Position numbers and translations under genes: made by a program. This document shows, piece after piece, positions 16,190 through 57,627 of a stretch of 64,000 bases of DNA. The number at the start of each line of letters is the position of its first letter. Positions within the stretch are counted from its first letter, which is position 1. Source of the DNA: a phage; sequence record PZ452582.1; one strand, 5' to 3'. A model generated the notes under the pieces. The model did no database searches, was not told the DNA's origin, and worked only from the letters and a program-made list of their open reading frames with translations.

Positions 16190-16711
16190 ATGTTTATTTC
16201 AAGTGAAAGCGGTTTAATTCGTGTTGAATTTAAAAATGACATCTTTCTTAGTCAAGGAGATGATATTATTAAAATGAGTTATGACGAAATCAAGAAAATT
16301 TGTCATACTCTTGAAAGCCGTGGAAAAGTAAATGCTGTTATTGACATCGGTGATTTATGGGTAACACTTTATGAAGTATCCGAAGGATTTAACATTGAAG
16401 ATGAAAATAACATTTTAGCTATTGATAAAAGAAGTGATTTGTTTGATGTATTAAAAGTTTATGAACAGTCAAACGGTGGAAGAAAAGCTGTATTGATTTA
16501 TCAAAAACCACATTCGTGTGGAACTGCTTCAATCATTTCAAATATTGAAGGCGAAGTTGATACTTATATGTGTGTTTTAAAAGCCGGTGGTGACCGTCAT
16601 CCGGATTTTATTTCTATTCGTCAAAACAATGGAGAAATTTCATTATCAAAATCAGAAGCTGAAGCTATGATTAAGTATTTAACAACCGTTACGCCTTCAA
16701 TGAAAGGATAA
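16190..16711 (+). CDS. hypothetical protein (173 aa), paralog of 15638-16183
   Basis: SD gtgagga; shared motifs with upstream gene. Confidence 0.6.
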   Translation: MFISSESGLIRVEFKNDIFLSQGDDIIKMSYDEIKKICHTLESRGKVNAVIDIGDLWVTLYEVSEGFNIEDENNILAIDKRSDLFDVLKVYEQSNGGRKAVLIYQKPHSCGTASIISNIEGEVDTYMCVLKAGGDRHPDFISIRQNNGEISLSKSEAEAMIKYLTTVTPSMKG

Positions 16712-16713
16712 TT

Positions 16714-17175
16714 ATGATTATTAATGAAAACTCTTGGCACTATAAATTATTCAAATTGTTTAACGATGAATGGCAACGACCTAAGACACTATGCGCATAT
16801 TTTTGGTCTATTGCCATTCCTATATTTTTCGTTTCTATTTTTGGGTGTGCTATACTCGTAGGGCTAACAATTATTTGTGCAGAAAGCCTACAACGCTGGC
16901 TTATTTTTGGTAGTTTATGGACTCTTATTCCATCAGCATTTATACTTGCCATTTTGCTTGTTTTACTTATTATTGGTTCATTTGTTATTCCTGCACAACT
17001 GCATGAAAAATATAAAGATTATAAATGGAAAAAGGATTATGCTTTACATGTAGAAAATATTGATAGGGCGTATAAAGGTTTACCTCCTATTCAACCCAAG
17101 AAATCTATTATCGTCGAATTTTTAAAAGCGCGTAAAGCTAAAGTATGTCCTGTTATTGAATATAAGGCTGAATGA
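16714..17175 (+). CDS. membrane protein (153 aa, 3-4 TM helices)
   Basis: Long hydrophobic segments; overlaps next gene (ATGA). Confidence 0.6.
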   Translation: MIINENSWHYKLFKLFNDEWQRPKTLCAYFWSIAIPIFFVSIFGCAILVGLTIICAESLQRWLIFGSLWTLIPSAFILAILLVLLIIGSFVIPAQLHEKYKDYKWKKDYALHVENIDRAYKGLPPIQPKKSIIVEFLKARKAKVCPVIEYKAE

Positions 17176-27260: not shown

Positions 27261-29074
27261 CAATTGAAAAAGAAATTGAAGGATTGATTCATAAAACTAA
27301 TAAAGACCTTTTAAACGAGAATGCTAATAAAGATTCTCGTGTTTTTCCAACTCAACGGGACCTTATGGCTGGTATTGTGTCTAAACACATTGCCAAAAAT
27401 ATGGTCCCGTCTTTTATTATGAAAGCGCATGAAAGCGGAATTATTCATTTCCATGATATTGATTATTCCCCTGCTCTTCCATTTACTAATTGTTGTTTAG
27501 TAGATTTAAAAGGAATGCTTGAGAACGGATTTAAGCTTGGTAATGCACAGATTGAAACTCCTAAATCAATTGGAGTTGCTACTGCAATTATGGCACAAAT
27601 TACTGCACAGGTTGCTTCCCATCAATACGGCGGAACGACTTTTGCTAATGTAGATAAAGTACTTTCTCCTTATGTTAAACGCACCTATGCAAAACATATT
27701 GAGGATGCAGAAAAATGGCAAATCGCTGATGCGTTGAATTATGCTCAATCTAAAACAGAAAAAGACGTATACGATGCATTCCAAGCTTATGAATATGAAG
27801 TAAATACTCTCTTTAGTTCAAACGGGCAAACACCTTTTGTAACAATTACATTTGGTACAGGAACTGACTGGACTGAACGAATGATTCAGAAAGCAATTCT
27901 GAAAAATCGTATTAAAGGTCTCGGTCGTGATGGGATAACTCCTATTTTCCCTAAGCTTGTTATGTTCGTTGAAGAAGGTGTTAATCTTTATAAAGACGAT
28001 CCGAATTACGACATTAAGCAACTTGCTCTAGAGTGCGCAAGCAAAAGGATGTATCCTGATATTATTTCAGCTAAGAACAATAAAGCTATCACTGGTTCAT
28101 CTGTTCCTGTTTCTCCAATGGGTTGCCGTAGTTTCTTGAGCGTATGGAAAGATTCGACTGGTAATGAAATTCTTGATGGACGTAATAATCTTGGTGTTGT
28201 AACACTGAATCTTCCTCGCATCGCGTTAGATTCTTATATTGGAACACAATTCAATGAACAGAAATTTGTTGAGCTATTTAATGAACGAATGGATTTATGT
28301 TTTGAAGCTTTGATGTGTAGAATTAGTTCCTTAAAAGGAGTTAAAGCTACTGTTGCTCCTATTCTTTACCAAGAAGGTGCATTCGGGGTTCGTCTTAAAC
28401 CTGATGACGACATAATTGAGTTATTTAAAAACGGTAGAAGTTCAGTGTCTTTAGGATACATTGGTATTCACGAATTGAATATTCTTGTCGGTCGTGATAT
28501 TGGACGAGAAATTTTAACTAAAATGAATGCTCATCTTAAACAGTGGACTGAAAGAACTGGATTTGCTTTTAGTTTATATTCGACTCCTGCTGAAAACCTT
28601 TGTTATCGCTTCTGTAAACTCGATACAGAAAAATATGGAAGCGTAAAAGATGTTACCGATAAAGGCTGGTACACTAACAGTTTCCATGTTTCAGTAGAAG
28701 AAAATATTACTCCGTTTGAAAAGATTTCTCGCGAAGCCCCGTATCATTTCATTGCAACAGGTGGTCACATTTCTTATGTTGAACTTCCTGATATGAAAAA
28801 TAACTTAAAAGGTCTTGAGGCTGTATGGGATTATGCTGCACAACATTTAGATTATTTTGGTGTTAATATGCCAGTAGATAAATGTTTTACATGTGGAAGT
28901 ACCCATGAAATGACTCCTACTGAAAACGGATTTGTTTGTTCTATTTGTGGAGAAACTGATCCTAAAAAGATGAACACAATAAGAAGAACATGTGGTTATT
29001 TGGGAAATCCGAACGAACGCGGATTTAATCTCGGTAAAAATAAAGAAATCATGCATAGGGTTAAACACCAATGA
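27257..29074 (+). CDS. nrdD: anaerobic ribonucleotide reductase NrdD (class III, glycyl radical)
   Basis: 605 aa continuous ORF; C-terminal zinc ribbon CFTCGS...CSICG. Confidence 0.95.
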   Translation: MTIEKEIEGLIHKTNKDLLNENANKDSRVFPTQRDLMAGIVSKHIAKNMVPSFIMKAHESGIIHFHDIDYSPALPFTNCCLVDLKGMLENGFKLGNAQIETPKSIGVATAIMAQITAQVASHQYGGTTFANVDKVLSPYVKRTYAKHIEDAEKWQIADALNYAQSKTEKDVYDAFQAYEYEVNTLFSSNGQTPFVTITFGTGTDWTERMIQKAILKNRIKGLGRDGITPIFPKLVMFVEEGVNLYKDDPNYDIKQLALECASKRMYPDIISAKNNKAITGSSVPVSPMGCRSFLSVWKDSTGNEILDGRNNLGVVTLNLPRIALDSYIGTQFNEQKFVELFNERMDLCFEALMCRISSLKGVKATVAPILYQEGAFGVRLKPDDDIIELFKNGRSSVSLGYIGIHELNILVGRDIGREILTKMNAHLKQWTERTGFAFSLYSTPAENLCYRFCKLDTEKYGSVKDVTDKGWYTNSFHVSVEENITPFEKISREAPYHFIATGGHISYVELPDMKNNLKGLEAVWDYAAQHLDYFGVNMPVDKCFTCGSTHEMTPTENGFVCSICGETDPKKMNTIRRTCGYLGNPNERGFNLGKNKEIMHRVKHQ

Positions 29075-29541
29075 ATTACGATAGATTTTATCCCTGTGAT
29101 TTTGTGAATGGCCCTGGATGCAGGGTCGTTCTTTTCGTTACAGGTTGTTTGCATAAATGCGAAGGGTGTTATAATAAATCGACATGGAATGCTAGAAATG
29201 GTGTTCCATTCACTGGTGAAACACTAGAACAATTAATTGAATGTTTGAATAATGATTATATAGAAGGATTGACTATAACCGGAGGTGACCCTCTCTATCC
29301 TGATAACAGAGACGTGATTCACTCTGTGGTTCAAACTATTAAAAATCTTTATCCCAATAAAAGCATTTGGTTGTGGACAGGATATAAGTTTGAAGATATT
29401 AAACAACTAGAAATGCTTAAATATGTTGATGTTATTATTGATGGGAAGTATGAGAAAAATCTTCCGACTAAAAAGCTGTGGCGAGGATCAGATAATCAGC
29501 GACTTTGGTCAAATACCGATGGGGTGTGGACACATGATTAA
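29071..29541 (+). CDS. nrdG: anaerobic RNR activating enzyme NrdG (radical SAM)
   Basis: 156 aa; CLHKCEGCYN radical-SAM cysteine motif; ATGA overlap with nrdD. Confidence 0.9.
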   Translation: MNYDRFYPCDFVNGPGCRVVLFVTGCLHKCEGCYNKSTWNARNGVPFTGETLEQLIECLNNDYIEGLTITGGDPLYPDNRDVIHSVVQTIKNLYPNKSIWLWTGYKFEDIKQLEMLKYVDVIIDGKYEKNLPTKKLWRGSDNQRLWSNTDGVWTHD

Positions 29542-33516: not shown

Positions 33517-33582
33517 GAGCTTCGGCTCCTATATTGCTTTATAAATTTTTGGTAAAATAAACCAAAACAAAGAGGATATTAA

Positions 33583-34785
33583 ATGAAAGTATGTATTTTT
33601 ATGGCTCGAGGTCTTGAAGGTTGTGGTGTAACTAAATTTTCTCTTGAGCAACGTGATTGGTTTATTAAGAATGGTCATGAAGTAACTTTGGTTTATGCTA
33701 AAGATAAATCATTTACTCGTAATTGCGCGCATGATTATAAATCATTTTCAATTCCGGTTTTATTGGCAAAAGAATATGATAAAACACTTAAGCTGGTAAA
33801 TGATTGTGATATTCTAATTATCAATTCAGTTCCTGCTACTTCGGTTGAAGAAGACACTATTAATAACTATAAAAAAATTATTGATAACATTAAACCTTCT
33901 GTTCGTGTTGTAGTTTATCAACATGACCATTCTTCTCTTTCTTTGCGCCGAAATTTGGGATTAGAAGAAACTGTTCGTCGAGCTGATGTTATTTTTAGCC
34001 ATTCTGATAATGGTGATTTTAATAAAGTTCTGATGAAAGAATGGTATCCTGAAACAGTTTCTCTGTTTGATGATATTGAAGAAGCACCGACAGTATATAA
34101 CTTTCAGCCTCCTATGGATATTGCGAAGGTTCGGTCAACCTACTGGAAAGATGTTTCTGAAATTAACATGAATATCAACCGTTGGATTGGTCGTACGACT
34201 ACATGGAAAGGTTTTTATCAGATGTTTGATTTTCATGAAAAACATCTTAAACCTGCAGGACTAAGTACTATTATGGAAGGTCTGGAACGTTCTCCAGCGT
34301 TCATTCCTATTAAAGAAAAAGGAATTCCATACGAGTATTATCGTCTTCATCAAGTAGACCAAATTAAAATTGCTCCTAATTTGCCAACGCAAATTCTTGA
34401 CCGTTATGTAAATAGCGAAATGCTTGAACGCATGAGTAAATCCGGTTTTGGTTATCAGCTGAGTAAGTTGGACAAAAAATATCTACAGCGTTCTTTAGAA
34501 TATACTCATCTCGAGCTTGGTGCATGCGGAACAATTCCGGTATTTTGGAAATCTACTGGCGAAAATTTAAAATTCCGTGTTGATAATACTCCTTTGACCT
34601 CGCATGATAGCGGTATCATTTGGTTTGATGAAAATGATATGGAATCAACATTTGAACGTATTAAAGAACTGTCATCTGACCGAACTCTTTATGACCGCGA
34701 ACGTGAAAAAGCTTATGAATTTTTGTATCAGCATCAAGATTCAAGCTTCTGCTTTAAAGAACAGTTTGACATTATTACAAAATAA
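33583..34785 (+). CDS. agt: DNA alpha-glucosyltransferase
   Basis: 400 aa, near-identical to recalled T4 Agt (M..CIFMARGLEGCGVTKFSLEQRDWFIKNGHEVTLVYAKDKSF...). Confidence 0.95.
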   Translation: MKVCIFMARGLEGCGVTKFSLEQRDWFIKNGHEVTLVYAKDKSFTRNCAHDYKSFSIPVLLAKEYDKTLKLVNDCDILIINSVPATSVEEDTINNYKKIIDNIKPSVRVVVYQHDHSSLSLRRNLGLEETVRRADVIFSHSDNGDFNKVLMKEWYPETVSLFDDIEEAPTVYNFQPPMDIAKVRSTYWKDVSEINMNINRWIGRTTTWKGFYQMFDFHEKHLKPAGLSTIMEGLERSPAFIPIKEKGIPYEYYRLHQVDQIKIAPNLPTQILDRYVNSEMLERMSKSGFGYQLSKLDKKYLQRSLEYTHLELGACGTIPVFWKSTGENLKFRVDNTPLTSHDSGIIWFDENDMESTFERIKELSSDRTLYDREREKAYEFLYQHQDSSFCFKEQFDIITK

Positions 34786-34824: not shown

Positions 34825-34965
34825 ATGATATTTCTTGGATATGTGATACTTTTTCTAGCGTTTTATCTGTTCACCAGAGCATGTTGGATTGGGTTCTTTA
34901 GCACTCCGGACGGATTTATTTCAATAATTTTATTTTGCATTTCAATGACGGTTCTTGATATATGA
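34825..34965 (+). CDS. small hydrophobic protein (46 aa)
   Basis: SD ggag; ATGA-coupled to gene 47; two hydrophobic stretches. Confidence 0.45.
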   Translation: MIFLGYVILFLAFYLFTRACWIGFFSTPDGFISIILFCISMTVLDI

Positions 34966-35981
34966 AAATTTTAAATTTAGGTGATTGGCATTTAGGTGTT
35001 AAAGCCGATGATGAGTGGGTTCAATCCATTCAGTTGGATGGAATTAAACAAGCAATAGAATATTCTAAGAAAAATGGAATTACTACATGGATTCAATACG
35101 GCGATATTTTTGATGTGCGAAAAGCAATCACACATAAAACTATGGAGTTCGCTCGTGAAATAGTTCAAATGCTTGATGATGCTGGTATTACCCTACATAC
35201 TGTTGTAGGAAACCATGATATGCACTTTAAAAATACTTTAACTCCAAATGCTTCTACTGAGCTTTTGGCTAAATATCCTAATGTTAAAGTATATGATAAG
35301 CCTACTACAGTAGATTTTGACGGATGTTTGATTGATTTAATTCCTTGGATGTGTGAAGAAAATACTGGTGAAATTCTTGAACATATTAAAACTTCATCCG
35401 CTTCTTTTTGTGTTGGTCACTGGGAACTGAATGGGTTTTATTTTTATAAAGGAATGAAATCTCACGGTCTTGAACCTGATTTCCTTAAGACTTATAAAGA
35501 GGTGTGGTCTGGTCACTTCCATACTATCTCTGAGGCTGCTAACGTCAGATATATTGGGACACCATGGACACTAACTGCAGGTGACGAGAATGACCCTCGT
35601 GGGTTCTGGATGTTTGATACAGAAACAGAACGAATGGAATTTATTCCAAACAATACTACCTGGCATCGTAGAATTCATTATCCATTTAAAGGAAAAATTG
35701 ACTATAAAGATTTTACAAATCTATCAGTACGTGTTATAGTAACTGAAGTAGACAAAAATCTAACGAAGTTCGAATCTGAACTAGAAAAAGTTGTGCATTC
35801 ATTACGAGTTGTGTCAAAAATTGATAACTCTGTCGAGTCAGATGACAGTGAAGAAGTTGAAGTTCAATCTCTTCAGACGTTAATGGAAGAATACATTAAT
35901 GCAATTCCAGACATCACTGATTCTGACCGTGAAGCACTTATTCAATATGCGAATCAGCTATATGTAGAGGCAACACAATGA
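34962..35981 (+). CDS. 47: recombination nuclease subunit gp47 (Mre11-like)
   Basis: 339 aa; phosphoesterase motifs GDWHLG, GDIFD, GNHD. Confidence 0.95.
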   Translation: MKILNLGDWHLGVKADDEWVQSIQLDGIKQAIEYSKKNGITTWIQYGDIFDVRKAITHKTMEFAREIVQMLDDAGITLHTVVGNHDMHFKNTLTPNASTELLAKYPNVKVYDKPTTVDFDGCLIDLIPWMCEENTGEILEHIKTSSASFCVGHWELNGFYFYKGMKSHGLEPDFLKTYKEVWSGHFHTISEAANVRYIGTPWTLTAGDENDPRGFWMFDTETERMEFIPNNTTWHRRIHYPFKGKIDYKDFTNLSVRVIVTEVDKNLTKFESELEKVVHSLRVVSKIDNSVESDDSEEVEVQSLQTLMEEYINAIPDITDSDREALIQYANQLYVEATQ

Positions 35982-36241: not shown

Positions 36242-36428
36242 CATTAATGATGAATTCATAGCAAACATTGATTATACCGAAGAAGATTCTAGATATGTTG
36301 GAATAATTTATATTACATCAAAAACAGCACAAGGCGTTGTTTGCATGGCTGAATTTGATGAATACTTTTTAGATTATGATGATATGATAGAATGGTCTAA
36401 AAGATACATTAAAAGGAATCTTTTGTGA
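36213..36428 (+). CDS. hypothetical protein (71 aa)
   Basis: 5' end shares about 30 nt with the start of the downstream HNH gene. Confidence 0.45.
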   Translation: MHTVKFSTFDINDEFIANIDYTEEDSRYVGIIYITSKTAQGVVCMAEFDEYFLDYDDMIEWSKRYIKRNLL

Positions 36429-37279
36429 AGAATTTTAAACTTGACATTAATGATGAATTTTTAATAAAGGAATTAGTTGAAAAATTAGCGTTGAGTGAAG
36501 AAGACGCCAAGTCTTACATTAATTTTATTTCTATGAATTCAACTGTTAAAACTCCAGGTAAAACGGAAGCACATCACGTGCTTCCTAAATCAATATTTCC
36601 TGAATATTTAAAATCTACATGGAATTTAGTTAATTTAAGTCATTTTAATCATTTTAAAGCACATTTCTTATTAGCAAAAGGTAAAAATGGAAAAATGCTA
36701 AATGCTTTAAATAGAATGATGTCAGGAAAAACATATAAAAATTTATCTTTAGCCGAAGTTGATTTAATAGCTGCTGAATATAGTTTTATAAAACAAGATG
36801 TAAGTGACACAATATCAAAAAGGCTTCAACAATATTATTCAAATCCGCAAAATAGAAATGCTGCTAGAGAAAGGGCATTAAAATATTTTTCAGTAGCAAA
36901 AAATAGGAAAGATAACAAAGAAAGATTAAATAATTTTAAAACAAAACAAAAAATTTCAATGGCTTCAAGGGAATGGTTTAATAACGAAGAAAATAAAATT
37001 AAACACCAAAAGGCTGTTCGTGCTGCTTTATCAAAACCTGAATATAAAATAGCTATATCAAATTCAGTAGCTGCTAGTTGGAAAAATCCGGAGATTAGAA
37101 AAGCTCATATAGCATCTCGACGAAAAGGCTATCATTGGGATAATAAAGATAAATTGTATGAATTGTGGATATCATATAATCGTCCTAAACATGTGATGTT
37201 TAGGAAAATGTTAGTTAAGAATGGATATCCAATAGAGGCTTCATTACAGGCTTTAGTTAAAGAATTTTCTTCATTGTGA
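36425..37279 (+). CDS. free-standing HNH homing endonuclease with NUMOD-like DNA-binding repeats
   Basis: HNH motif AHHVLPKS...NLVNLSHFNHFKAH; repeated IS.S..W motifs; GTG start overlapping upstream stop; AT-rich. Confidence 0.65.
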   Translation: MKNFKLDINDEFLIKELVEKLALSEEDAKSYINFISMNSTVKTPGKTEAHHVLPKSIFPEYLKSTWNLVNLSHFNHFKAHFLLAKGKNGKMLNALNRMMSGKTYKNLSLAEVDLIAAEYSFIKQDVSDTISKRLQQYYSNPQNRNAARERALKYFSVAKNRKDNKERLNNFKTKQKISMASREWFNNEENKIKHQKAVRAALSKPEYKIAISNSVAASWKNPEIRKAHIASRRKGYHWDNKDKLYELWISYNRPKHVMFRKMLVKNGYPIEASLQALVKEFSSL

Positions 37280-37294
37280 ACAATTGGATACAAA

Positions 37295-38977
37295 ATGAAA
37301 TCATTTAAACTTAATAGAGTAAAATATAAAAATATAATGTCAGTTGGTCAAAATGGAGTTGACATTCAATTAGATAAGGTTCAAAAAACTCTTATTACTG
37401 GACGAAATGGCGGTGGTAAGTCTACTATGTTAGAAGCCATCACATTTGGGCTTTTTGGCAAGCCATTTCGTGATGTAAAGAAAGGCCAATTAATAAACAG
37501 CACAAATAAGAAAGAACTTTTAGTTGAACTGTGGATGGAATATGATGAGAAAAAGTACTATATCAAAAGAGGACAAAAACCAAACGTTTTCGAAATCACC
37601 GTTAACGGTACACGTCTTAATGAATCTGCCAGCAGTAAAGATTTCCAAGCAGAATTTGAACAGCTTATCGGAATGTCATATGCCAGTTTCAAGCAGATTG
37701 TTGTCCTTGGTACAGCAGGGTATACCCCTTTCATGGGTTTGTCGACCCCTGCACGAAGAAAGCTTGTGGAAGACCTGCTTGAGGTAGGAACATTAGCTGA
37801 AATGGATAAGCTTAATAAAGCACTAATACGTGAATTAAATTCACAAAACCAAGTGCTTGATGTTAAAAAAGATAGTATTATCCAACAAATTAAAATATAT
37901 AATGATAATGTTGAACGCCAGAAAAAATTGTCTGGTGACAACCTTACTCGTCTTCAAAATATGTATGATGATTTGGCAAAAGAAGCTAGAACGCTAAAAT
38001 CAGAAATAGAAGAAGTTAATGAAAGATTAGTTAATATTGTTTTAGATGAAGACCCGACTGATGCATTTAATAAAATCGGTCAAGAAGCAGTTTTAATTAA
38101 ATCAAAAATTGACTCGTATAATAAAGTCATTAATATGTATCACGAAGGCGGATTATGCCCAACCTGCTTGTCACAATTAAGTTCAGGTGATAAAGTTGTT
38201 TCTAAAATTAAAGATAAAGTTTCTGAATGTACGCATTCGTTTGAACAGCTTTCAACACATCGTGATAATTTAAAAGTTCTTGTTGATGAATACCGAGATA
38301 ATATTAAAACCCAACAGTCGTTGGCAAATGATATTCGCAATAAAAAGCAATCTCTAATCACGACGGTAGATAAAGCTAAAAAAGTTAAAGCAGCTATAGA
38401 AAAAGCATCTTCTGAGTTTATTGACCATGCTGATGAAATAGCACTGCTTCAAGAAGAACTTGATAAAATTGTTAAGACAAAAACTAATTTAGTAATGGAA
38501 AAATACCACCGAGGAATTTTGACTGATATGCTCAAAGATTCTGGTATTAAAGGTGCTATTATTAAAAAGTACATTCCATTATTTAATAAGCAGATTAACC
38601 ATTATCTTAAAATAATGGAAGCGGATTATGTGTTTACATTAGATGAAGAATTTAATGAGACAATTAAATCCCGTGGTCGTGAAGATTTTAGTTATGCTTC
38701 ATTCAGTCAAGGTGAAAAAGCACGAATTGATATTGCTCTTTTATTTACTTGGCGTGATATTGCTGAAAAAGTTTCAGGTGTTAAAATAAACACACTAATT
38801 CTTGATGAAGTTTTTGATTCAGCGACCGATGTTGAAGGTGTAAAAGCTATTTCAACTATTTTAGATAGTTTAAAAAATACTAATGTTTTTGTTATTTCGC
38901 ATAGAGACCATGACCCACAAGCATATGGTCAGCACCTTCAAATGAAGAAAGTTGGTCGATTTACTGTAATGGTTTAA
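37295..38977 (+). CDS. 46: recombination ATPase gp46 (Rad50/SbcC-like)
   Basis: 560 aa; Walker A GRNGGGKST; zinc-hook CPTC; long coiled coil. Confidence 0.95.
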   Translation: MKSFKLNRVKYKNIMSVGQNGVDIQLDKVQKTLITGRNGGGKSTMLEAITFGLFGKPFRDVKKGQLINSTNKKELLVELWMEYDEKKYYIKRGQKPNVFEITVNGTRLNESASSKDFQAEFEQLIGMSYASFKQIVVLGTAGYTPFMGLSTPARRKLVEDLLEVGTLAEMDKLNKALIRELNSQNQVLDVKKDSIIQQIKIYNDNVERQKKLSGDNLTRLQNMYDDLAKEARTLKSEIEEVNERLVNIVLDEDPTDAFNKIGQEAVLIKSKIDSYNKVINMYHEGGLCPTCLSQLSSGDKVVSKIKDKVSECTHSFEQLSTHRDNLKVLVDEYRDNIKTQQSLANDIRNKKQSLITTVDKAKKVKAAIEKASSEFIDHADEIALLQEELDKIVKTKTNLVMEKYHRGILTDMLKDSGIKGAIIKKYIPLFNKQINHYLKIMEADYVFTLDEEFNETIKSRGREDFSYASFSQGEKARIDIALLFTWRDIAEKVSGVKINTLILDEVFDSATDVEGVKAISTILDSLKNTNVFVISHRDHDPQAYGQHLQMKKVGRFTVMV

Positions 38978-39032: not shown

Positions 39033-39221
39033 ATGGAATATTCAACTGGACAACATCTATTAACTATTCCTGAAATAAAACGATATATTCTGAGAAATAA
39101 TTTTTCTAATGAAGAGCATATAGTTACTGAATCTATGCTTAGGAATGCATTTAAAGCAGAATATACAAAAATAATGTCCAATAGAAATGAAGCTTGGACT
39201 GTTACTGATTATTATGACTAA
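39033..39221 (+). CDS. hypothetical protein (62 aa)
   Basis: SD ggagga. Confidence 0.5.
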   Translation: MEYSTGQHLLTIPEIKRYILRNNFSNEEHIVTESMLRNAFKAEYTKIMSNRNEAWTVTDYYD

Positions 39222-39230
39222 AGGTGTATT

Positions 39231-39620
39231 ATGACTAAAATTACTGTGAATTATACTGTTGATGTAAAAGATATTCAGCCAAAACACGTGCGTTCTGAAT
39301 CAAATCCACAAAACCAAAATAAAATTCGTCGAGCATGGGTTTTGTCTCTTTCTGATAACGCAATGGAAGTTATTCAGAACAAAATTAAATCTGCACCTGC
39401 TCGTCATGCGTATTATGAAGCTATCGATCGTGAAGTAAGTAATAAATGGATTGAACTAATGCGCAAACATACTACAGAATCCCTAAATGCCGGTGCTAAA
39501 TTTATTATGACTTCATGTGGTGAACGCCTTGAAGATGAATATTGCGGTAATGCAGATGAACGTCTAATTGTTGCTGCTCAAATTGTTGCCGAAACAATTG
39601 TGGCCGAGTTTAATAAATGA
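39231..39620 (+). CDS. rpbA: RNA polymerase-binding protein RpbA-like (129 aa)
   Basis: Size and position between 46 and 45 match T4 rpbA; no diagnostic motif. Confidence 0.5.
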
Positions 39621-40504
39621 ATTTAGTATATCTTATTAGCTTTCCAGAGCGGGAAGCTAAAAATATTTTTCCGTGTTATTATATAGGTTCAAAAATTAAC
39701 GCAATTTTCGATGGAACAAATATAATTGATTCAGCTGGAAAGATTTATACTGGAAGCGTGTCATCGAGTTATAGCGATGAATATTTTGAACTTATTAAAA
39801 CCACTAAATATACCGTCAAAATTTTAGCTGAAACTATATTAGATCCAAGAAAATTGGAGAGATTTTTTCAATTAAAAGTTAAAGCAAAAAGTAATATAAA
39901 ATATTTTAATAAAGCATACGCAGATGAAAATACTTTAATTGGTGCTAAAGGATATGGAACATATAAAAATGTTTTAACTGGAAAAATTGTAAAGCTTTCG
40001 CAATCTGAAATTACGCCTGAGTATGTCGGTATTCGTAAAGGTTACAAACATAGTTCTGAAGTAAAATACAAAATATCTAATTCAATGAAGAATCACTGGA
40101 CCGATGAGAAAAAGCTTAAACTCTCAAATAAGATGAAATTGAAATATCTTGATTGTAGTTATGCTAAAAAGTTTAGTGATATAATGAATTCAGAAAGTGT
40201 AAGATCAAAAATTTCTAAATCTCAAAAAGAATTATGGAATAATGCTGAAAGAAGACAGAGAGCTTCAATTCAAGCAACTGTTAGAAATAATTTACCGGAA
40301 TTCAAATCAAAATTTAGAAAATCTAAAGCTAGAGGAACTTGGATTGAACATGAAGATGAATTAAAATCTTTATGGCATGCTTACGGAAAACCAAGTTATA
40401 ATAAATTTCGTAAAATTGCAGTAGCTAATGGGTTTAACGACGAATCTTATCAGGGTGCTGTACGGTCCTGGTCTAACTATTATGTAAATAGGAAATTGAA
40501 ATGA
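39617..40504 (+). CDS. free-standing GIY-YIG homing endonuclease (Seg-like) with NUMOD-like repeats
   Basis: LVYLISF...(11 aa)...YYIGSK matches GIY-YIG; C-terminal domain resembles that of the HNH ORF at 36425. Confidence 0.65.
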
Positions 40505-41187
40505 AATTATCTAAAGACACACTGAATATTTTGAAAAATTTCGCTACTATTAACTCCGGTATTATGCTTAAATCCGGTCAATTTATTATGACTCGTGCAG
40601 TTAATGGTACAACTTATGCGGAAGCAAATATTTCTGACGTTATTGATTTTGATGTAGCAATTTACGATTTGAACGGTTTTCTCGGTATTCTGTCTCTAGT
40701 TAATGATGATGCAGAAATTTCCCAGTCAGAAGATGGAAATATTAAAATTGCTGATGCCCGCTCAACAATTTTTTGGCCAGCAGCCGATCCGAGTACAGTA
40801 GTTGCTCCTAATAAACCAATTCCATTCCCGGTAGCATCTGTTGTTACTGAAATTAAAGCTGAAGACCTTCAACAACTGTTGCGTGTATCTCGTGGTCTGC
40901 AAATTGATACAATTGCTATCACGGTAAAAGAAGGTAAAATCGTAATTAATGGTTTTAATAAAGTAGAAGATTCTGCTCTTACCCGTGTTAAATATTCTTT
41001 GACTCTTGGTGATTATGATGGTGAAAATACATTTAATTTCATTATCAATATGGCAAATATGAAAATGCAACCAGGAAATTATAAACTTCTGCTTTGGGCA
41101 AAAGGTAAACAAGGTGCTGCTAAATTTGAAGGTGAACACGCGAATTATGTAGTAGCTCTTGAAGCTGATTCTACCCACGATTTTTAA
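40501..41187 (+). CDS. 45: sliding clamp gp45
   Basis: 228 aa, matches recalled T4 gp45 ([21 protein letters not shown]...). Confidence 0.95.
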   Translation: MKLSKDTLNILKNFATINSGIMLKSGQFIMTRAVNGTTYAEANISDVIDFDVAIYDLNGFLGILSLVNDDAEISQSEDGNIKIADARSTIFWPAADPSTVVAPNKPIPFPVASVVTEIKAEDLQQLLRVSRGLQIDTIAITVKEGKIVINGFNKVEDSALTRVKYSLTLGDYDGENTFNFIINMANMKMQPGNYKLLLWAKGKQGAAKFEGEHANYVVALEADSTHDF

Positions 41188-47355: not shown

Positions 47356-48096
47356 ATGATTAGTGACTCTATGACAGTTGAAGAAATCCGTCTTCATTTG
47401 GGGCTTGCATTAAAAGAAAAAGATTTCGTAGTTGATAAAACCGGTGTTAAAACTATTGAAATTATTGGCGCATCATTTGTAGCAGATGAACCGTTTATTT
47501 TTGGTGCTCTTAATGATGAATACATTCAGCGTGAACTTGAATGGTATAAATCTAAGAGCTTGTTCGTTAAAGATATTCCAGGTGAAACACCGAAGATTTG
47601 GCAACAAGTAGCATCTTCTAAAGGCGAAATTAACTCGAACTATGGTTGGGCTATTTGGTCAGAAGATAACTATGCCCAGTATGATATGTGTTTAGCTGAA
47701 CTTGGTCAAAATCCTGATTCTCGACGTGGTATCATGATTTATACTCGTCCATCCATGCAATTTGACTACAATAAAGATGGTATGTCAGATTTCATGTGTA
47801 CTAATACAGTACAGTACCTGATTCGTGATAAGAAAGTCAATGCAGTAGTAAGCATGCGCTCAAATGACGTGGTCTTCGGATTCCGTAATGATTATGCATG
47901 GCAAAAATACGTATTAGATAAATTAGTATCTGATTTGAATGCCGGCGATTCATCTCGTCAGTATAAAGCAGGTTCTATTATATGGAATGTCGGAAGTCTT
48001 CATGTATATTCTCGTCATTTTTACTTGGTTGATCATTGGTGGAATACTGGCGAAACTCATATTGTGAAAAAAGACTATAAAGGTGAGTGGAAATGA
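47356..48096 (+). CDS. 42: dCMP hydroxymethylase gp42
   Basis: 246 aa thymidylate-synthase-like fold; position between imm and glycosyltransferase. Confidence 0.95.
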   Translation: MISDSMTVEEIRLHLGLALKEKDFVVDKTGVKTIEIIGASFVADEPFIFGALNDEYIQRELEWYKSKSLFVKDIPGETPKIWQQVASSKGEINSNYGWAIWSEDNYAQYDMCLAELGQNPDSRRGIMIYTRPSMQFDYNKDGMSDFMCTNTVQYLIRDKKVNAVVSMRSNDVVFGFRNDYAWQKYVLDKLVSDLNAGDSSRQYKAGSIIWNVGSLHVYSRHFYLVDHWWNTGETHIVKKDYKGEWK

Positions 48097-48935
48097 TTCA
48101 ATTCGTAATTCCAAGTTATCAGCGTGTCAGGGCAGTTTCTGCCCTTGATATGTTTCCGACTGATTATGAACCGCATATTGTAGTGCGTGAACATGAAGAA
48201 AAAGCTTATCATGACGCTTATGGGTCTAGAGCTAAAATTATAACTATTCCTGATGATGTAAACGGAATTGCCGGTACTCGTAAAGCAATTACCGATATAT
48301 ATGCAGGTCAACGAATCTGGATGATTGACGATGATACTACTATTCGTATGAGTTCAATGCGAAAAAGAGATGATCGTCGTTGCGTAGATAAAGTCAATCA
48401 ATTGACTCGTGAACAGTTCTATGAATTGATTCAATATGTTGAGGATGCCATGGATTGCGGGTATTATCATGGCCATGCTCGTCTACCTATTTTTAAAATT
48501 ACTTCATCTTGGGGTAATTATCGTGAAAATTCATATGGATTCACGAATACATGGTATGACCTCGGAAAACTTACGACAGAACAAATTGGGTATGGAAAAA
48601 TTGATTTATGCGAAGATATGTATGCATTTCTCAATTTAATTAATCAAGGTTATCCGCATTTGGCCTTGTTCAAATATCTAGTTGTATCTGGAAAAGCACA
48701 AGCTCCTGGCGGGTGCAGTTCAATTCGTAGTAATTCTAAACATAATAGAGCGCTTGAGCAGATTAATAGAGAGTTTCCAGAGCAAGCTCGTTGGAAAACT
48801 TCTAATATTGAAAAACGAAAATCGTTGGGTGAAGAAGACGAACCATTAAAGGTTCTTCGCATGTGCGTTTCACGTAAAGAAAAATCAGAAGCATTTCATA
48901 AGTTTAATGCTATTCATCCAATAGCAGTTGATTAA
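48093..48935 (+). CDS. GT-A fold glycosyltransferase (DxD motif) at the T4 beta-gt position; not T4 beta-gt
   Basis: WMIDDDTT DxD motif; ATGA-coupled to gene 42; 280 aa vs 351 aa for T4 beta-gt. Confidence 0.6.
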   Translation: MIQFVIPSYQRVRAVSALDMFPTDYEPHIVVREHEEKAYHDAYGSRAKIITIPDDVNGIAGTRKAITDIYAGQRIWMIDDDTTIRMSSMRKRDDRRCVDKVNQLTREQFYELIQYVEDAMDCGYYHGHARLPIFKITSSWGNYRENSYGFTNTWYDLGKLTTEQIGYGKIDLCEDMYAFLNLINQGYPHLALFKYLVVSGKAQAPGGCSSIRSNSKHNRALEQINREFPEQARWKTSNIEKRKSLGEEDEPLKVLRMCVSRKEKSEAFHKFNAIHPIAVD

Positions 48936-49012
48936 TGCCTAAATTTATTGTGTTATAATTACTCTATCTTTAACCAGTGAGGAAAATATAATGATGCCTA
49001 TGGAAAAAATGA

Positions 49013-50194
49013 ATGTCTATTGCAGATTTAAAATCCCGTTTGATTAAAGCTTCCACTTCTAAAATGACTGCTGAACTGACTACATCTAAATTCTTTAATG
49101 AAAAGGATGTAATTCGTACAAAAATTCCAATGCTTAATATTGCTATTTCTGGTGCGATTGATGGCGGCATGCAGTCTGGTTTAACTATTTTCGCAGGGCC
49201 TTCTAAACACTTTAAATCAAATATGTCTTTGACTATGGTTGCGGCATATTTGAACAAATATCCTGACGCGGTTTGTCTATTCTATGATAGTGAATTTGGT
49301 ATTACTCCAGCTTATTTGCGATCCATGGGAGTTGACCCGGAACGAGTAATTCATACGCCGATTCAGTCAGTTGAACAGCTGAAAATTGATATGGTGAACC
49401 AGCTTGAAGCTATTGAGCGTGGTGAAAAGGTTATTGTATTCATCGACTCAATTGGTAATATGGCTTCTAAGAAAGAAACGGAAGATGCCTTGAATGAAAA
49501 ATCTGTGGCAGATATGACTCGTGCTAAATCACTGAAGTCATTATTCCGTATTGTTACTCCTTACTTTAGCATTAAAAATATTCCATGTGTTGCGGTTAAC
49601 CATACAATTGAAACAATTGAAATGTTTAGTAAAACCGTGATGACAGGTGGTACAGGCGTAATGTATTCGGCTGATACTGTATTCATTATCGGTAAGCGTC
49701 AGATTAAAGATGGTTCTGATCTTCAGGGGTATCAATTTGTTCTAAATGTAGAAAAATCTCGTACCGTTAAAGAAAAAAGTAAATTCTTTATTGATGTTAA
49801 ATTTGACGGTGGTATCGATCCTTATTCTGGATTGTTAGATATGGCTCTAGAATTAGGATTTGTAGTAAAACCTAAAAATGGTTGGTATGCTCGTGAATTT
49901 CTTGACGAAGAAACCGGCGAGATGATTCGCGAAGAAAAATCTTGGCGTGCAAAAGATACTAACTGCACTACATTCTGGGGTCCTTTATTTAAGCATCAAC
50001 CATTCCGAGATGCTATTAAGCGTGCTTATCAGTTAGGTGCTATTGATAGTAATGAAATTGTTGAAGCGGAAGTTGATGAATTAATTAACTCAAAGGTTGA
50101 AAAATTTAAATCCTCAGAAAGTAAAAGTAAATCAGCAGCTGATTTAGAAACTGACCTCGAGCAGTTAAGTGATATGGAAGAATTTAATGAATAA
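49013..50194 (+). CDS. uvsX: recombinase UvsX (RecA-like)
   Basis: 393 aa, near-identical to recalled T4 UvsX over most of its length. Confidence 0.95.
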   Translation: MSIADLKSRLIKASTSKMTAELTTSKFFNEKDVIRTKIPMLNIAISGAIDGGMQSGLTIFAGPSKHFKSNMSLTMVAAYLNKYPDAVCLFYDSEFGITPAYLRSMGVDPERVIHTPIQSVEQLKIDMVNQLEAIERGEKVIVFIDSIGNMASKKETEDALNEKSVADMTRAKSLKSLFRIVTPYFSIKNIPCVAVNHTIETIEMFSKTVMTGGTGVMYSADTVFIIGKRQIKDGSDLQGYQFVLNVEKSRTVKEKSKFFIDVKFDGGIDPYSGLLDMALELGFVVKPKNGWYAREFLDEETGEMIREEKSWRAKDTNCTTFWGPLFKHQPFRDAIKRAYQLGAIDSNEIVEAEVDELINSKVEKFKSSESKSKSAADLETDLEQLSDMEEFNE

Positions 50195-56708: not shown

Positions 56709-57227
56709 ATGGCTCACTTTAATGAATGTGCTCATTTGATCGAAGGTGTTGATAAAGCAAATCGTGCATATGCTGAGAATATTATGCACAATATTGACCC
56801 ACTGCAGGTTATGCTTGACATGCAGCGGCATTTACAGATTCGTTTGGCTAATGATAAACCAGAAACAAATCGTCATCCTGATTCACTTGAAACTGCAGGA
56901 GAAGTTCTTGCTTGGTTGCGAAACCAAGACGATTATATCGCAGATGAAACCCGCGAGTTATATACTTCTCTTGGTGGTATGAGTAATGGCGAAAAAGAAG
57001 CTTCTGCTGTATGGAAACCTTGGAAGAAACGTTATTCTGAAATGCAATCCAAGAAAATTCAAGATTTATCTCCCGAAGATCAGCTTGAAATTAAATTTGA
57101 ACTTATTGACCAATTTCATTTTTTCATGAATAAATTTATTGCTCTTGGAATGTCAGCTGAAGAAATCTTTAAACTTTATTACCTGAAAAATGCTGAAAAC
57201 TTCGCTCGTCAAGACCGAGGTTATTAA
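56709..57227 (+). CDS. 56: dCTPase/dUTPase gp56 (MazG-like)
   Basis: 172 aa from ATG 56709 (SD aagga); matches recalled T4 gp56 N-terminus MAHFNECAHL. Confidence 0.9.
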   Translation: MAHFNECAHLIEGVDKANRAYAENIMHNIDPLQVMLDMQRHLQIRLANDKPETNRHPDSLETAGEVLAWLRNQDDYIADETRELYTSLGGMSNGEKEASAVWKPWKKRYSEMQSKKIQDLSPEDQLEIKFELIDQFHFFMNKFIALGMSAEEIFKLYYLKNAENFARQDRGY

Positions 57228-57421
57228 TGGCTCGTTTAAATAAGCGTCAGCTTAAGAAAGCCCATAAGAAACGTATTGACCAGCTATTTAAAGATTATAA
57301 CAAAGAGCTCGTGTGTGAGCTCTTAACTAATCAACTTCGTATGGTTGAAATTATAGAAGGTCCTGACGAAATTTTTGTCAGTGAAGAAGCTTTAAAATTA
57401 ATTATAGAGCATTCAAAATGA
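57227..57421 (+). CDS. hypothetical basic protein (64 aa)
   Basis: ATG overlapping upstream stop. Confidence 0.5.
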   Translation: MARLNKRQLKKAHKKRIDQLFKDYNKELVCELLTNQLRMVEIIEGPDEIFVSEEALKLIIEHSK

Positions 57422-57627
57422 AATTTGATTTTTATGCATGGCAAAAAGCTGGGAGACCAGCTACTCGAGCATTTGGTTCTGATGGATATAATATTAGAGC
57501 CCATTGGAAATTTAATGCTCCAGAAGATTATTCTCCGGTAATTATTAACGGCGATGTTGTTATATTAACTAAAATCGGGTATTTTAACGTTCCGCGAGAA
57601 TTTATTATAAATAATCATGTAATTTAA
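57418..57627 (+). CDS. hypothetical protein (69 aa)
   Basis: ATGA overlap. Confidence 0.5.
   Translation: MKFDFYAWQKAGRPATRAFGSDGYNIRAHWKFNAPEDYSPVIINGDVVILTKIGYFNVPREFIINNHVI

Follow-up and report, generated by a model that had tools for sequence, protein, structure and literature searches.

A probable Seg-type homing endonuclease gene between rpbA and gene 45 of a T-even phage, and the DNA-binding region that it has in common with a neighbouring HNH gene

The open reading frame between rpbA and gene 45

The 64,000-nucleotide stretch of DNA analysed here, called the window throughout (PZ452582.1), is a segment of a Tequatrovirus (T-even) phage that is collinear with the T4 map from about 73 kb down to 9.4 kb. 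It carries an open reading frame (ORF) between rpbA and the sliding-clamp gene 45, here called the seg gene, and, 2.3 kb from it, a second ORF of the HNH class between 46.1 and gene 46; both sites are empty in T4. An earlier note on this DNA had taken the former for a GIY-YIG homing endonuclease with a C-terminal domain resembling that of the latter, and the catalytic motif and homology to T4 SegG bear out the nuclease assignment. We consider it very probable that the seg gene encodes a two-part, free-standing homing endonuclease of the Seg type, whose DNA-binding half derives from an old and widespread pool of modules.

The GIY...YIG motif of the seg protein reads L3-V4-Y5 followed by Y22-I23-G24, and all 14 homologues aligned have the same residue at ten positions (Y5, Y21, Y22, I23, G24, S25, Y44, S47, E81 and N98). 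T4 SegG is 39.8% identical over residues 1-102 (tblastn E 3e-9 against 2.3 Gb; BLASTP E 2e-15), and E81 and N98 align with the catalytic Glu (E75) and Asn (N90) of I-TevI and with their equivalents in SegA-G. Furthermore, the N-terminal domain has the three-stranded sheet with flanking helices that defines the GIY-YIG fold, PHROGs assigns the ORF to phrog_655 'homing endonuclease' (E 4e-33), and the matches in BFVD are Seg, GIY-YIG, NUMOD and MobD-like phage proteins. Taken together, these homologies point to a GIY-YIG homing endonuclease of the SegG subtype, in which residues ~1-105 would form the nuclease domain and residues ~138-290 an extended DNA-binding region of NUMOD3-like repeats and a terminal module; nuclease activity is what we infer from this likeness.

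Several results weigh against this assignment. The GIY...YIG spacer has 16 residues and not the canonical 10-11, as does that of SegG. Pfam GIY-YIG and NCBIfam return no catalytic-domain match for the ORF at E up to 1, no GIY-YIG chain is found among PDB sequences with a profile of the 14-sequence alignment, and no residue aligns with the catalytic Arg27 of I-TevI, which is equally true of all seven T4 Seg proteins. Alignment of the seg family with I-TevI by hhalign likewise gives no catalytic-domain alignment, only a weak match in the NUMOD3 region. (The only match of the PDB profile search was a zinc finger, discarded as spurious, which arises from the C-termini of other members of the alignment.) The missing matches to curated models reflect the sensitivity of those models and not the fold of the protein. 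As Pfam and NCBIfam hold nothing significant for either the seg or the HNH ORF, the identification of both rests on PHROGs, on T4 homologues and on the fold. Nor does the unalignable arginine exclude activity, since SegA-G lack it in the same way and five of these proteins (A, B, E, F and G) are reported to be active endonucleases (PMC2330249).

The distribution of the gene has the hallmarks of a homing endonuclease. The region is matched in 692 phage records, and among the 505 with flanks at least 95% identical only 25 carry the seg gene; it is missing from roughly 480 whose flanks are 95-99% identical. The alignment with RB14 is interrupted from 39614 to 40490, and the gene replaces, with precise boundaries, a 55-bp rpbA-45 intergenic region that is nearly identical in T4, RB14, ESh32, HY03 and slur03. 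The same site holds orthologues of 54-59% identity in Mosigvirus (FL31 and others) and Gaprivervirus (VR26 and TH15), where their stop likewise overlaps the start of gene 45 and carriers are a minority; the majority of Mosigvirus records have no seg gene. In the Mosigvirus JM17 (L012) the orthologue is split into two ORFs (377-901 and 906-1268), and tblastn matches in two pieces were found in FL18, AV115, G2285 and AV111, consistent with the decay of some copies. The GC content of the gene is 27-29%, against 33-37% for its flanks.

Among four Tequatrovirus alleles the ratio of nonsynonymous to synonymous polymorphism (pN/pS) is 0.09-0.15 in five of the six pairs and 0.30 in the closest pair, similar to that of rpbA. 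These low values, comparable to those of rpbA, indicate that the gene is maintained as a protein, and the whole ORF, nuclease domain included, is under purifying selection. Several database records annotate the gene as 'homing endonuclease' and many others as 'hypothetical protein'. In VR26 (L002) the deposited 'putative DNA endonuclease' starts at 1756 and omits the GIY-YIG domain; the full ORF there runs from 1501 to 2388, with a GTG start at 1501 that overlaps the rpbA stop.

The features of the locus are collected in Table 1. Both ends of the seg ORF overlap its neighbours by the sequence ATGA, its ATG overlapping the stop of rpbA and its TGA the ATG of gene 45.

Table 1. Features of the seg locus and its surroundings, in window positions
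Feature	Position	Strand	Remark or basis
seg ORF, 295 amino acids, ATG start; probable Seg-type free-standing homing endonuclease gene	39617-40504	+	ORF call, PHROGs, pN/pS
N-terminal GIY-YIG catalytic domain, residues ~1-105 (Y5, Y22-I23-G24, E81, N98)	39617-39931	+	
Linker with small beta-hairpin element, residues ~106-141, ending EYVG	39932-40039	+	predicted strands, motif conservation
Helical repeat region, NUMOD3-like, residues ~142-237	40040-40327	+	homologous to middle of HNH ORF
C-terminal three-helix module of ~50 amino acids, residues 238-289	40328-40483	+	W..[DE]EL..LW...GKP....FRKIAV.NGF.D.SY
seg C-terminal tail codons NRKLK and stop, holding gene 45 Shine-Dalgarno AGGAAA (40490-40495)	40484-40504	+	
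Candidate embedded T4 middle-type promoter for gene 45, TGCTTAC-N12-TATAAT	40378-40402	+	motif level
Left junction: variant last rpbA codons, IVAEFNK (IAADFNR in seg-less phages)	39595-39620	+	
Right junction: variant gene 45 5' end, possible recognition/immunity region	40501-40535	+	
HNH ORF, 284 amino acids, GTG start; MobD-like free-standing homing endonuclease gene	36425-37279	+	between 46.1 and 46
DNA-binding half of HNH ORF, residues 113-284	36761-37276	+	hhalign to seg 138-289
Terminal module of HNH ORF, residues 233-284	37121-37276	+	module model E 4e-28
a-gt	33583-34785	+	
gene 47	34962-35981	+	
46.2 and 46.1	between gene 47 and HNH ORF	+	
gene 46	37295-38977	+	
45.2	39033-39221	+	
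rpbA	39231-39620	+	
gene 45 (sliding clamp)	40501-41187	+	
gene 44	41224 onwards	+	

The description of the two nuclease genes as flanking the same essential gene was imprecise. The HNH gene adjoins gene 46; 45.2 and rpbA, over ~640 bp, separate gene 46 from the seg gene downstream of it, which adjoins gene 45. Elsewhere in the window, the T4 homing endonuclease genes mobD, mobC, mobB, segA and segF and the I-TevII intron have no counterpart, and no segB homologue was detected; the window positions concerned are ~16208-17164, 27792-27795, ~29071-29091, 33567-33595, 48078-49025 and 57190-57606. At the place of T4 b-gt and segA stands an ORF of 282 amino acids (48087-48932, + strand) with no relation to the T4 segment at the DNA level. 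Besides the seg and HNH ORFs, no further copies of the C-terminal module and no other T4-type endonuclease genes were found in the 64 kb.

The junctions and the putative expression signals of gene 45

Substitutions cluster within ~20-35 bp of both junctions of the insertion, and this clustering is seen in two genera. The last ~20 nucleotides of rpbA differ from those of all five seg-less phages compared. Gene 45 has 11 differences from T4 in its first 33 nucleotides and 2 in the next 77, and, among the phages compared, its bases at nucleotides 7, 9 and 18 occur in the seg-carrying one only. Mosigvirus shows a similar contrast: between FL31 and the seg-less KMB38, ~13 of the first 27 nucleotides of gene 45 differ, as against only 3 of the following 83, and T4 shares the seg-less Mosigvirus sequence ATGAAACTGTCTAAAGATACTAC(T/C)GCT. 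Such clustering is compatible with a region for recognition or immunity at the start of gene 45, in the intergenic region or in both, and also with donor flanks that were co-converted with the gene.

Part of the variant patch in gene 45 speaks against the reading as a protected target. Codons 7-11 (40519-40533) are a two-allele polymorphism of Tequatrovirus (ACACTGAATATTTTG versus ACTACTGCTCTGCTG) that is independent of the presence of seg: the allele of the window, which resembles that of Mosigvirus FL31, differs from that of T4 and RB14 and is also found in the seg-less phages ESh32, HY03 and slur03. As these codons are the same in phages lacking the gene, the patch as a whole was rejected as seg-specific, and codons 7-11 are not by themselves evidence of target-site immunity.

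The overlap of the seg stop with the start of gene 45 places the Shine-Dalgarno sequence of gene 45 within the last seg codons, and the orthologues of VR26 and FL31 keep both TAGGAAA and the Y-x-N-R-K tail. A candidate middle promoter lies within the 3' part of the seg gene, ~100 bp before gene 45. In seg-less phages the displaced intergenic region holds a MotA-box-like middle-promoter motif, TGCTTTA...TATAAAAT, and the seg genes of VR26 and FL31 read TGCTTTAGG...TATATT at the homologous position. The embedded motif possibly replaces the displaced intergenic promoter; as the same bases encode conserved residues of the C-terminal module, it stays a guess at the level of motifs. A MotA-box-like motif with a -10 element is thus seen at the homologous position in three genera (2262-2286 in L002 and 2265-2289 in L003).

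At the 5' end of the seg gene, a hairpin at 39636-39670 (+ strand, seg codons 7-18) has a GC-containing stem of 10 bp followed by a T-run and is terminator-like. VR26 has a different hairpin of 12 bp nearby and FL31 has none. A conserved regulatory hairpin was rejected here, the structure having z = -1.3 against shuffles and not being in register in VR26 or FL31.

A DNA-binding half common to two nuclease classes

Beyond the catalytic domain, the linker of the seg protein has predicted strands at residues 113-118, 124-128 and 136-138, so that the beta-hairpin element spans residues 113-138. The motif GYGTY.N..TGK.VKL....P.V..GEYVG (39950-40039, residues 112-141) is kept in SegG-like proteins, with several repeats in P0020, and may be a further DNA-contacting repeat. 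Six helices are predicted at residues 147-235. Pfam NUMOD3 (PF07460) matches residues 142-158 below threshold (12.9 bits against a cut-off of 20.4, E 0.11), and the alignment by hhalign to the NUMOD3 minor-groove helix of I-TevI (169-195) is weak, at 4% probability. PF07460 is present in the relatives P0015, P0017, P0019, P0021, P0143 and P0151; our term 'NUMOD3-like' describes the region and makes no claim of membership. A compact three-helix unit is predicted at residues 242-283.

The second nuclease gene of the window is inserted relative to T4. Its product has 30% identity to MobD of T4 over 243 amino acids (BLASTP E 3e-17) and also matches MobB (E 2e-7), MobC (7e-7) and MobE (3e-4) across its motif. 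That motif, EAHHVLPKS...N67...H76...H80, has H50, H51, N67, H76 and H80 invariant in the family alignment (A3). PHROGs assigns the ORF to phrog_12434 'HNH endonuclease' (E 4e-15), and the Pfam HNH models give it no score. The window and most other records have an intact copy of the gene; homologues in T2 (MH751506.1), RB51 (FJ839693.1) and G2133 align in two pieces, which suggests frameshifted copies.

The C-terminal resemblance of the two ORFs claimed in the earlier note proved real and longer than supposed. BLASTP aligns them with E 9e-11 and 26% identity over 221 amino acids under composition-based statistics. Regional Smith-Waterman scores compared with 500 shuffles gave z = 13.4 for the last 60 amino acids, z = 6.0 for the middle regions and z = 0.05, that is no similarity, for the N-termini; the catalytic domains, as judged from their sequences, are unrelated. 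Alignment of the seg family (A4) with the Mob-type family (A3) by hhalign has 98.7% probability (E 3.4e-16) and pairs seg residues 138-289 with HNH residues 113-284. The part in common is therefore ~150 amino acids, the whole DNA-binding half, three times the ~50 proposed.

The terminal ~50 amino acids of this half form a recognizable module, with the pattern W-x3-[DE]-x-[LI]-x2-[LI]-W-x5-P-x4-F-x7-G-[YF]-[PN]-x3-Y and three predicted helices. Comparison with the T4 seg and mob genes, which the earlier note had proposed, places it at the C-termini of SegA and SegF (GIY-YIG) and of MobD (HNH). A hidden Markov model (HMM) seeded with these three and both window ORFs was run on proteins from an exhaustive phmmer search. 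Its seeds score E 4e-26 and 4e-28 for the window ORFs (the latter for the HNH ORF), 6e-26 for SegA and 1e-22 for SegF; sequences outside the seed score mostly between 1e-9 and 1e-17 per copy (domain E). The module is found on HNH proteins of two subtypes (P0098, P0144 and P0151; P0125, P0132 and P0143), on GIY-YIG proteins of the SegA type (P0136 and P0140) and SegF type (P0090, P0133 and P0150), and on dozens of metagenomic GIY-YIG and HNH nucleases; P0090, P0098, P0133, P0140 and P0144 carry two or three copies in tandem. No Pfam family matches it. It may be identical with what Sitbon and Pietrokovski (2003) called 'NUMOD2'. In most of its relatives the SegG-like catalytic domain is followed by other C-termini, and in P0015-P0018 and P0021 a SegG-like GIY-YIG domain is joined to a CPHCxK...RWHFDNC zinc finger as in the HNH enzyme I-TevIII, which makes this finger a second DNA-binding element common to both nuclease classes.

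How the two neighbours came by related C-termini can be weighed on this evidence. Two lysine-rich, helical tails might resemble each other through composition with no homology at all: both regions are indeed rich in lysine, arginine and serine and helical, and the score of the middle regions is modest. Yet none of the 500 shuffles reached the observed score of the last 60 amino acids, the BLASTP match stands despite its correction for composition, the profile alignment is near certain, and more than 25 instances of the module, with domain E values down to 1e-17, share one specific motif (W, [DE]-x-L, LW, P, F, G-[YF]-P, Y); we regard this explanation as refuted and give it practically no credence. 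A recent, direct exchange of the module between the two genes would suit their proximity in one genome and the ~150 homologous amino acids, but it sits badly with the low identity, 26% overall and 34.7% over the 49 positions of the terminal module. The two modules are mid-rank relatives, and each has closer kin elsewhere: the nearest non-orthologue of the seg module is the HNH protein P0132 (51%), and the module of the HNH ORF stands nearest to those of T4 MobD, P0133 and P0150 (all 42%). There is no reported similarity at the nucleotide level, and tblastn of phages with the C-terminal 191 amino acids of the seg protein (E up to 1e-3) found orthologues together with a few proteins of HNH or hypothetical annotation and missed the HNH gene in genomes carrying it; the pairwise similarity is real and too weak to be detected at database scale from a single sequence. 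Moreover, the HNH gene is present in many seg-less phages (for example T2, RB51 and PP01) and the seg gene in phages without it. Direct exchange is thus very improbable and effectively refuted. The proposal of domain shuffling between mobile genes holds for the GIY-YIG and HNH classes and fails for any specific or recent event between these neighbours. Given that the module occurs on SegA, SegF, MobD and many other proteins of both classes, among which the window pair is of middling closeness, sequence comparison supports well a shuffling that is old, repeated and family-wide.

A different possibility concerns the seg protein itself. It could be a domesticated, catalytically dead derivative, kept for the promoter and ribosome-binding site of gene 45 or as a DNA-binding regulator. 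I-TevI acts as such a regulator when it autorepresses. The Shine-Dalgarno sequence in the last seg codons and the MotA-box-like motif in the 3' part would suit a gene so retained, as would the unalignable equivalent of Arg27 and the silence of the curated GIY-YIG models, and embedded essential promoters are said in a review to guard such endonuclease genes from deletion (PMC2988022). Against this, Y5, Y22, E81 and N98 are invariant across orthologues 54-59% identical and in more distant relatives, purifying selection extends over the nuclease domain, active T4 Seg enzymes lack the alignable arginine as well, and the sporadic distribution with decayed copies fits the life cycle of a mobile nuclease gene. 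We therefore hold domestication to be improbable, though less so than a recent exchange, and retain the reading of an endonuclease gene with a two-part product.

Proposed homing and relation to known systems

On the model of SegA, B, E, F and G (PMC2330249, PMC2988022), the seg gene would act as an apparently promoterless cassette whose translation is probably coupled to that of rpbA. In a mixed infection the protein would bind the rpbA/45 junction of a seg-less genome through its C-terminal region, most likely at the conserved start of gene 45, in the intergenic region or in both, and the GIY-YIG domain would cut nearby. Recombination-dependent repair from the seg-carrying genome would then copy the gene together with flanking markers, as in intronless homing or marker exclusion. 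The host genome itself would be immune, since the insertion removes the intergenic region and bases close to the junctions are substituted. On this reading, catalytic domains of both the GIY-YIG and the HNH class have been paired time and again with DNA-binding modules of this kind.

A bolder combination of ideas is offered tentatively, as one that we think rather doubtful: that the three-helix module is a widespread, unnamed family of DNA-binding domains absent from Pfam, and that the first ~30 nucleotides of gene 45 are the recognition or immunity region of the seg enzyme. Were this true, the module would be a swappable unit of specificity open to study and engineering, and the recognition region would offer a testable reason why the start of gene 45 is polymorphic in T-even phages.

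The rpbA/45 junction, directly upstream of the sliding-clamp gene, adds one more Seg-type insertion site to the T-even catalogue, and our literature search found no paper naming a seg gene there. Together with the MobD-like gene it brackets a block of replication and recombination genes, in keeping with the published homing endonuclease 'islands', which influence marker exclusion and mosaicism between competing phages; essential genes with homing endonuclease genes on either side are known (PMC10448857). The pair is also a clean natural example of one DNA-binding architecture placed on two catalytic domains in a single genome, and the ~50-amino-acid module could serve annotation pipelines, as many such genes are still called 'hypothetical protein'. 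The practical value is modest and current understanding is unchallenged. Modular 'beads-on-a-string' DNA-binding regions of GIY-YIG and HNH phage endonucleases are established (PMC2988022, PMC1564403, PMC2330249), as are the homing of Seg enzymes and promoterless endonuclease cassettes that hold signals for essential genes downstream (PMC2988022, PMC2330249).

Among characterized enzymes, T4 SegG is the closest relative of the seg catalytic domain, with the same 16-residue spacer and the YYIGSK motif. Both genes are apparently promoterless cassettes directly upstream of an essential replication gene, and the expression signals of gene 32 lie inside segG (PMC2988022). They differ in insertion site (59/32 for segG, rpbA/45 here) and in their C-terminal halves, which are unrelated, that of SegG having neither the helical repeats nor the three-helix module. 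I-TevI resembles the seg protein in fold and in layout, with two domains, a linker and an extended modular DNA-binding region ending in a small helical domain. Unlike the free-standing seg gene it is encoded in an intron (td), its catalytic domain has no significant sequence similarity to that of the seg protein, and its zinc finger and NUMOD1-type helix-turn-helix were not detected in the latter.

For the DNA-binding half, the likeness lies with T4 MobD and the HNH protein of the window, where homologous NUMOD3-like 'W-x-N-P-E-x-R' helical repeats precede the terminal module, whereas the catalytic domain is HNH, with a beta-beta-alpha-metal fold, in place of GIY-YIG. T4 SegA and SegF are GIY-YIG enzymes that end in the same module; their catalytic subtypes (SegA-E type and SegF type) and insertion sites differ from those of the window gene, and the identity of their modules to that of the seg protein is low, at 14-22%. 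The combination of a GIY-YIG domain with this module thus already exists in T4.

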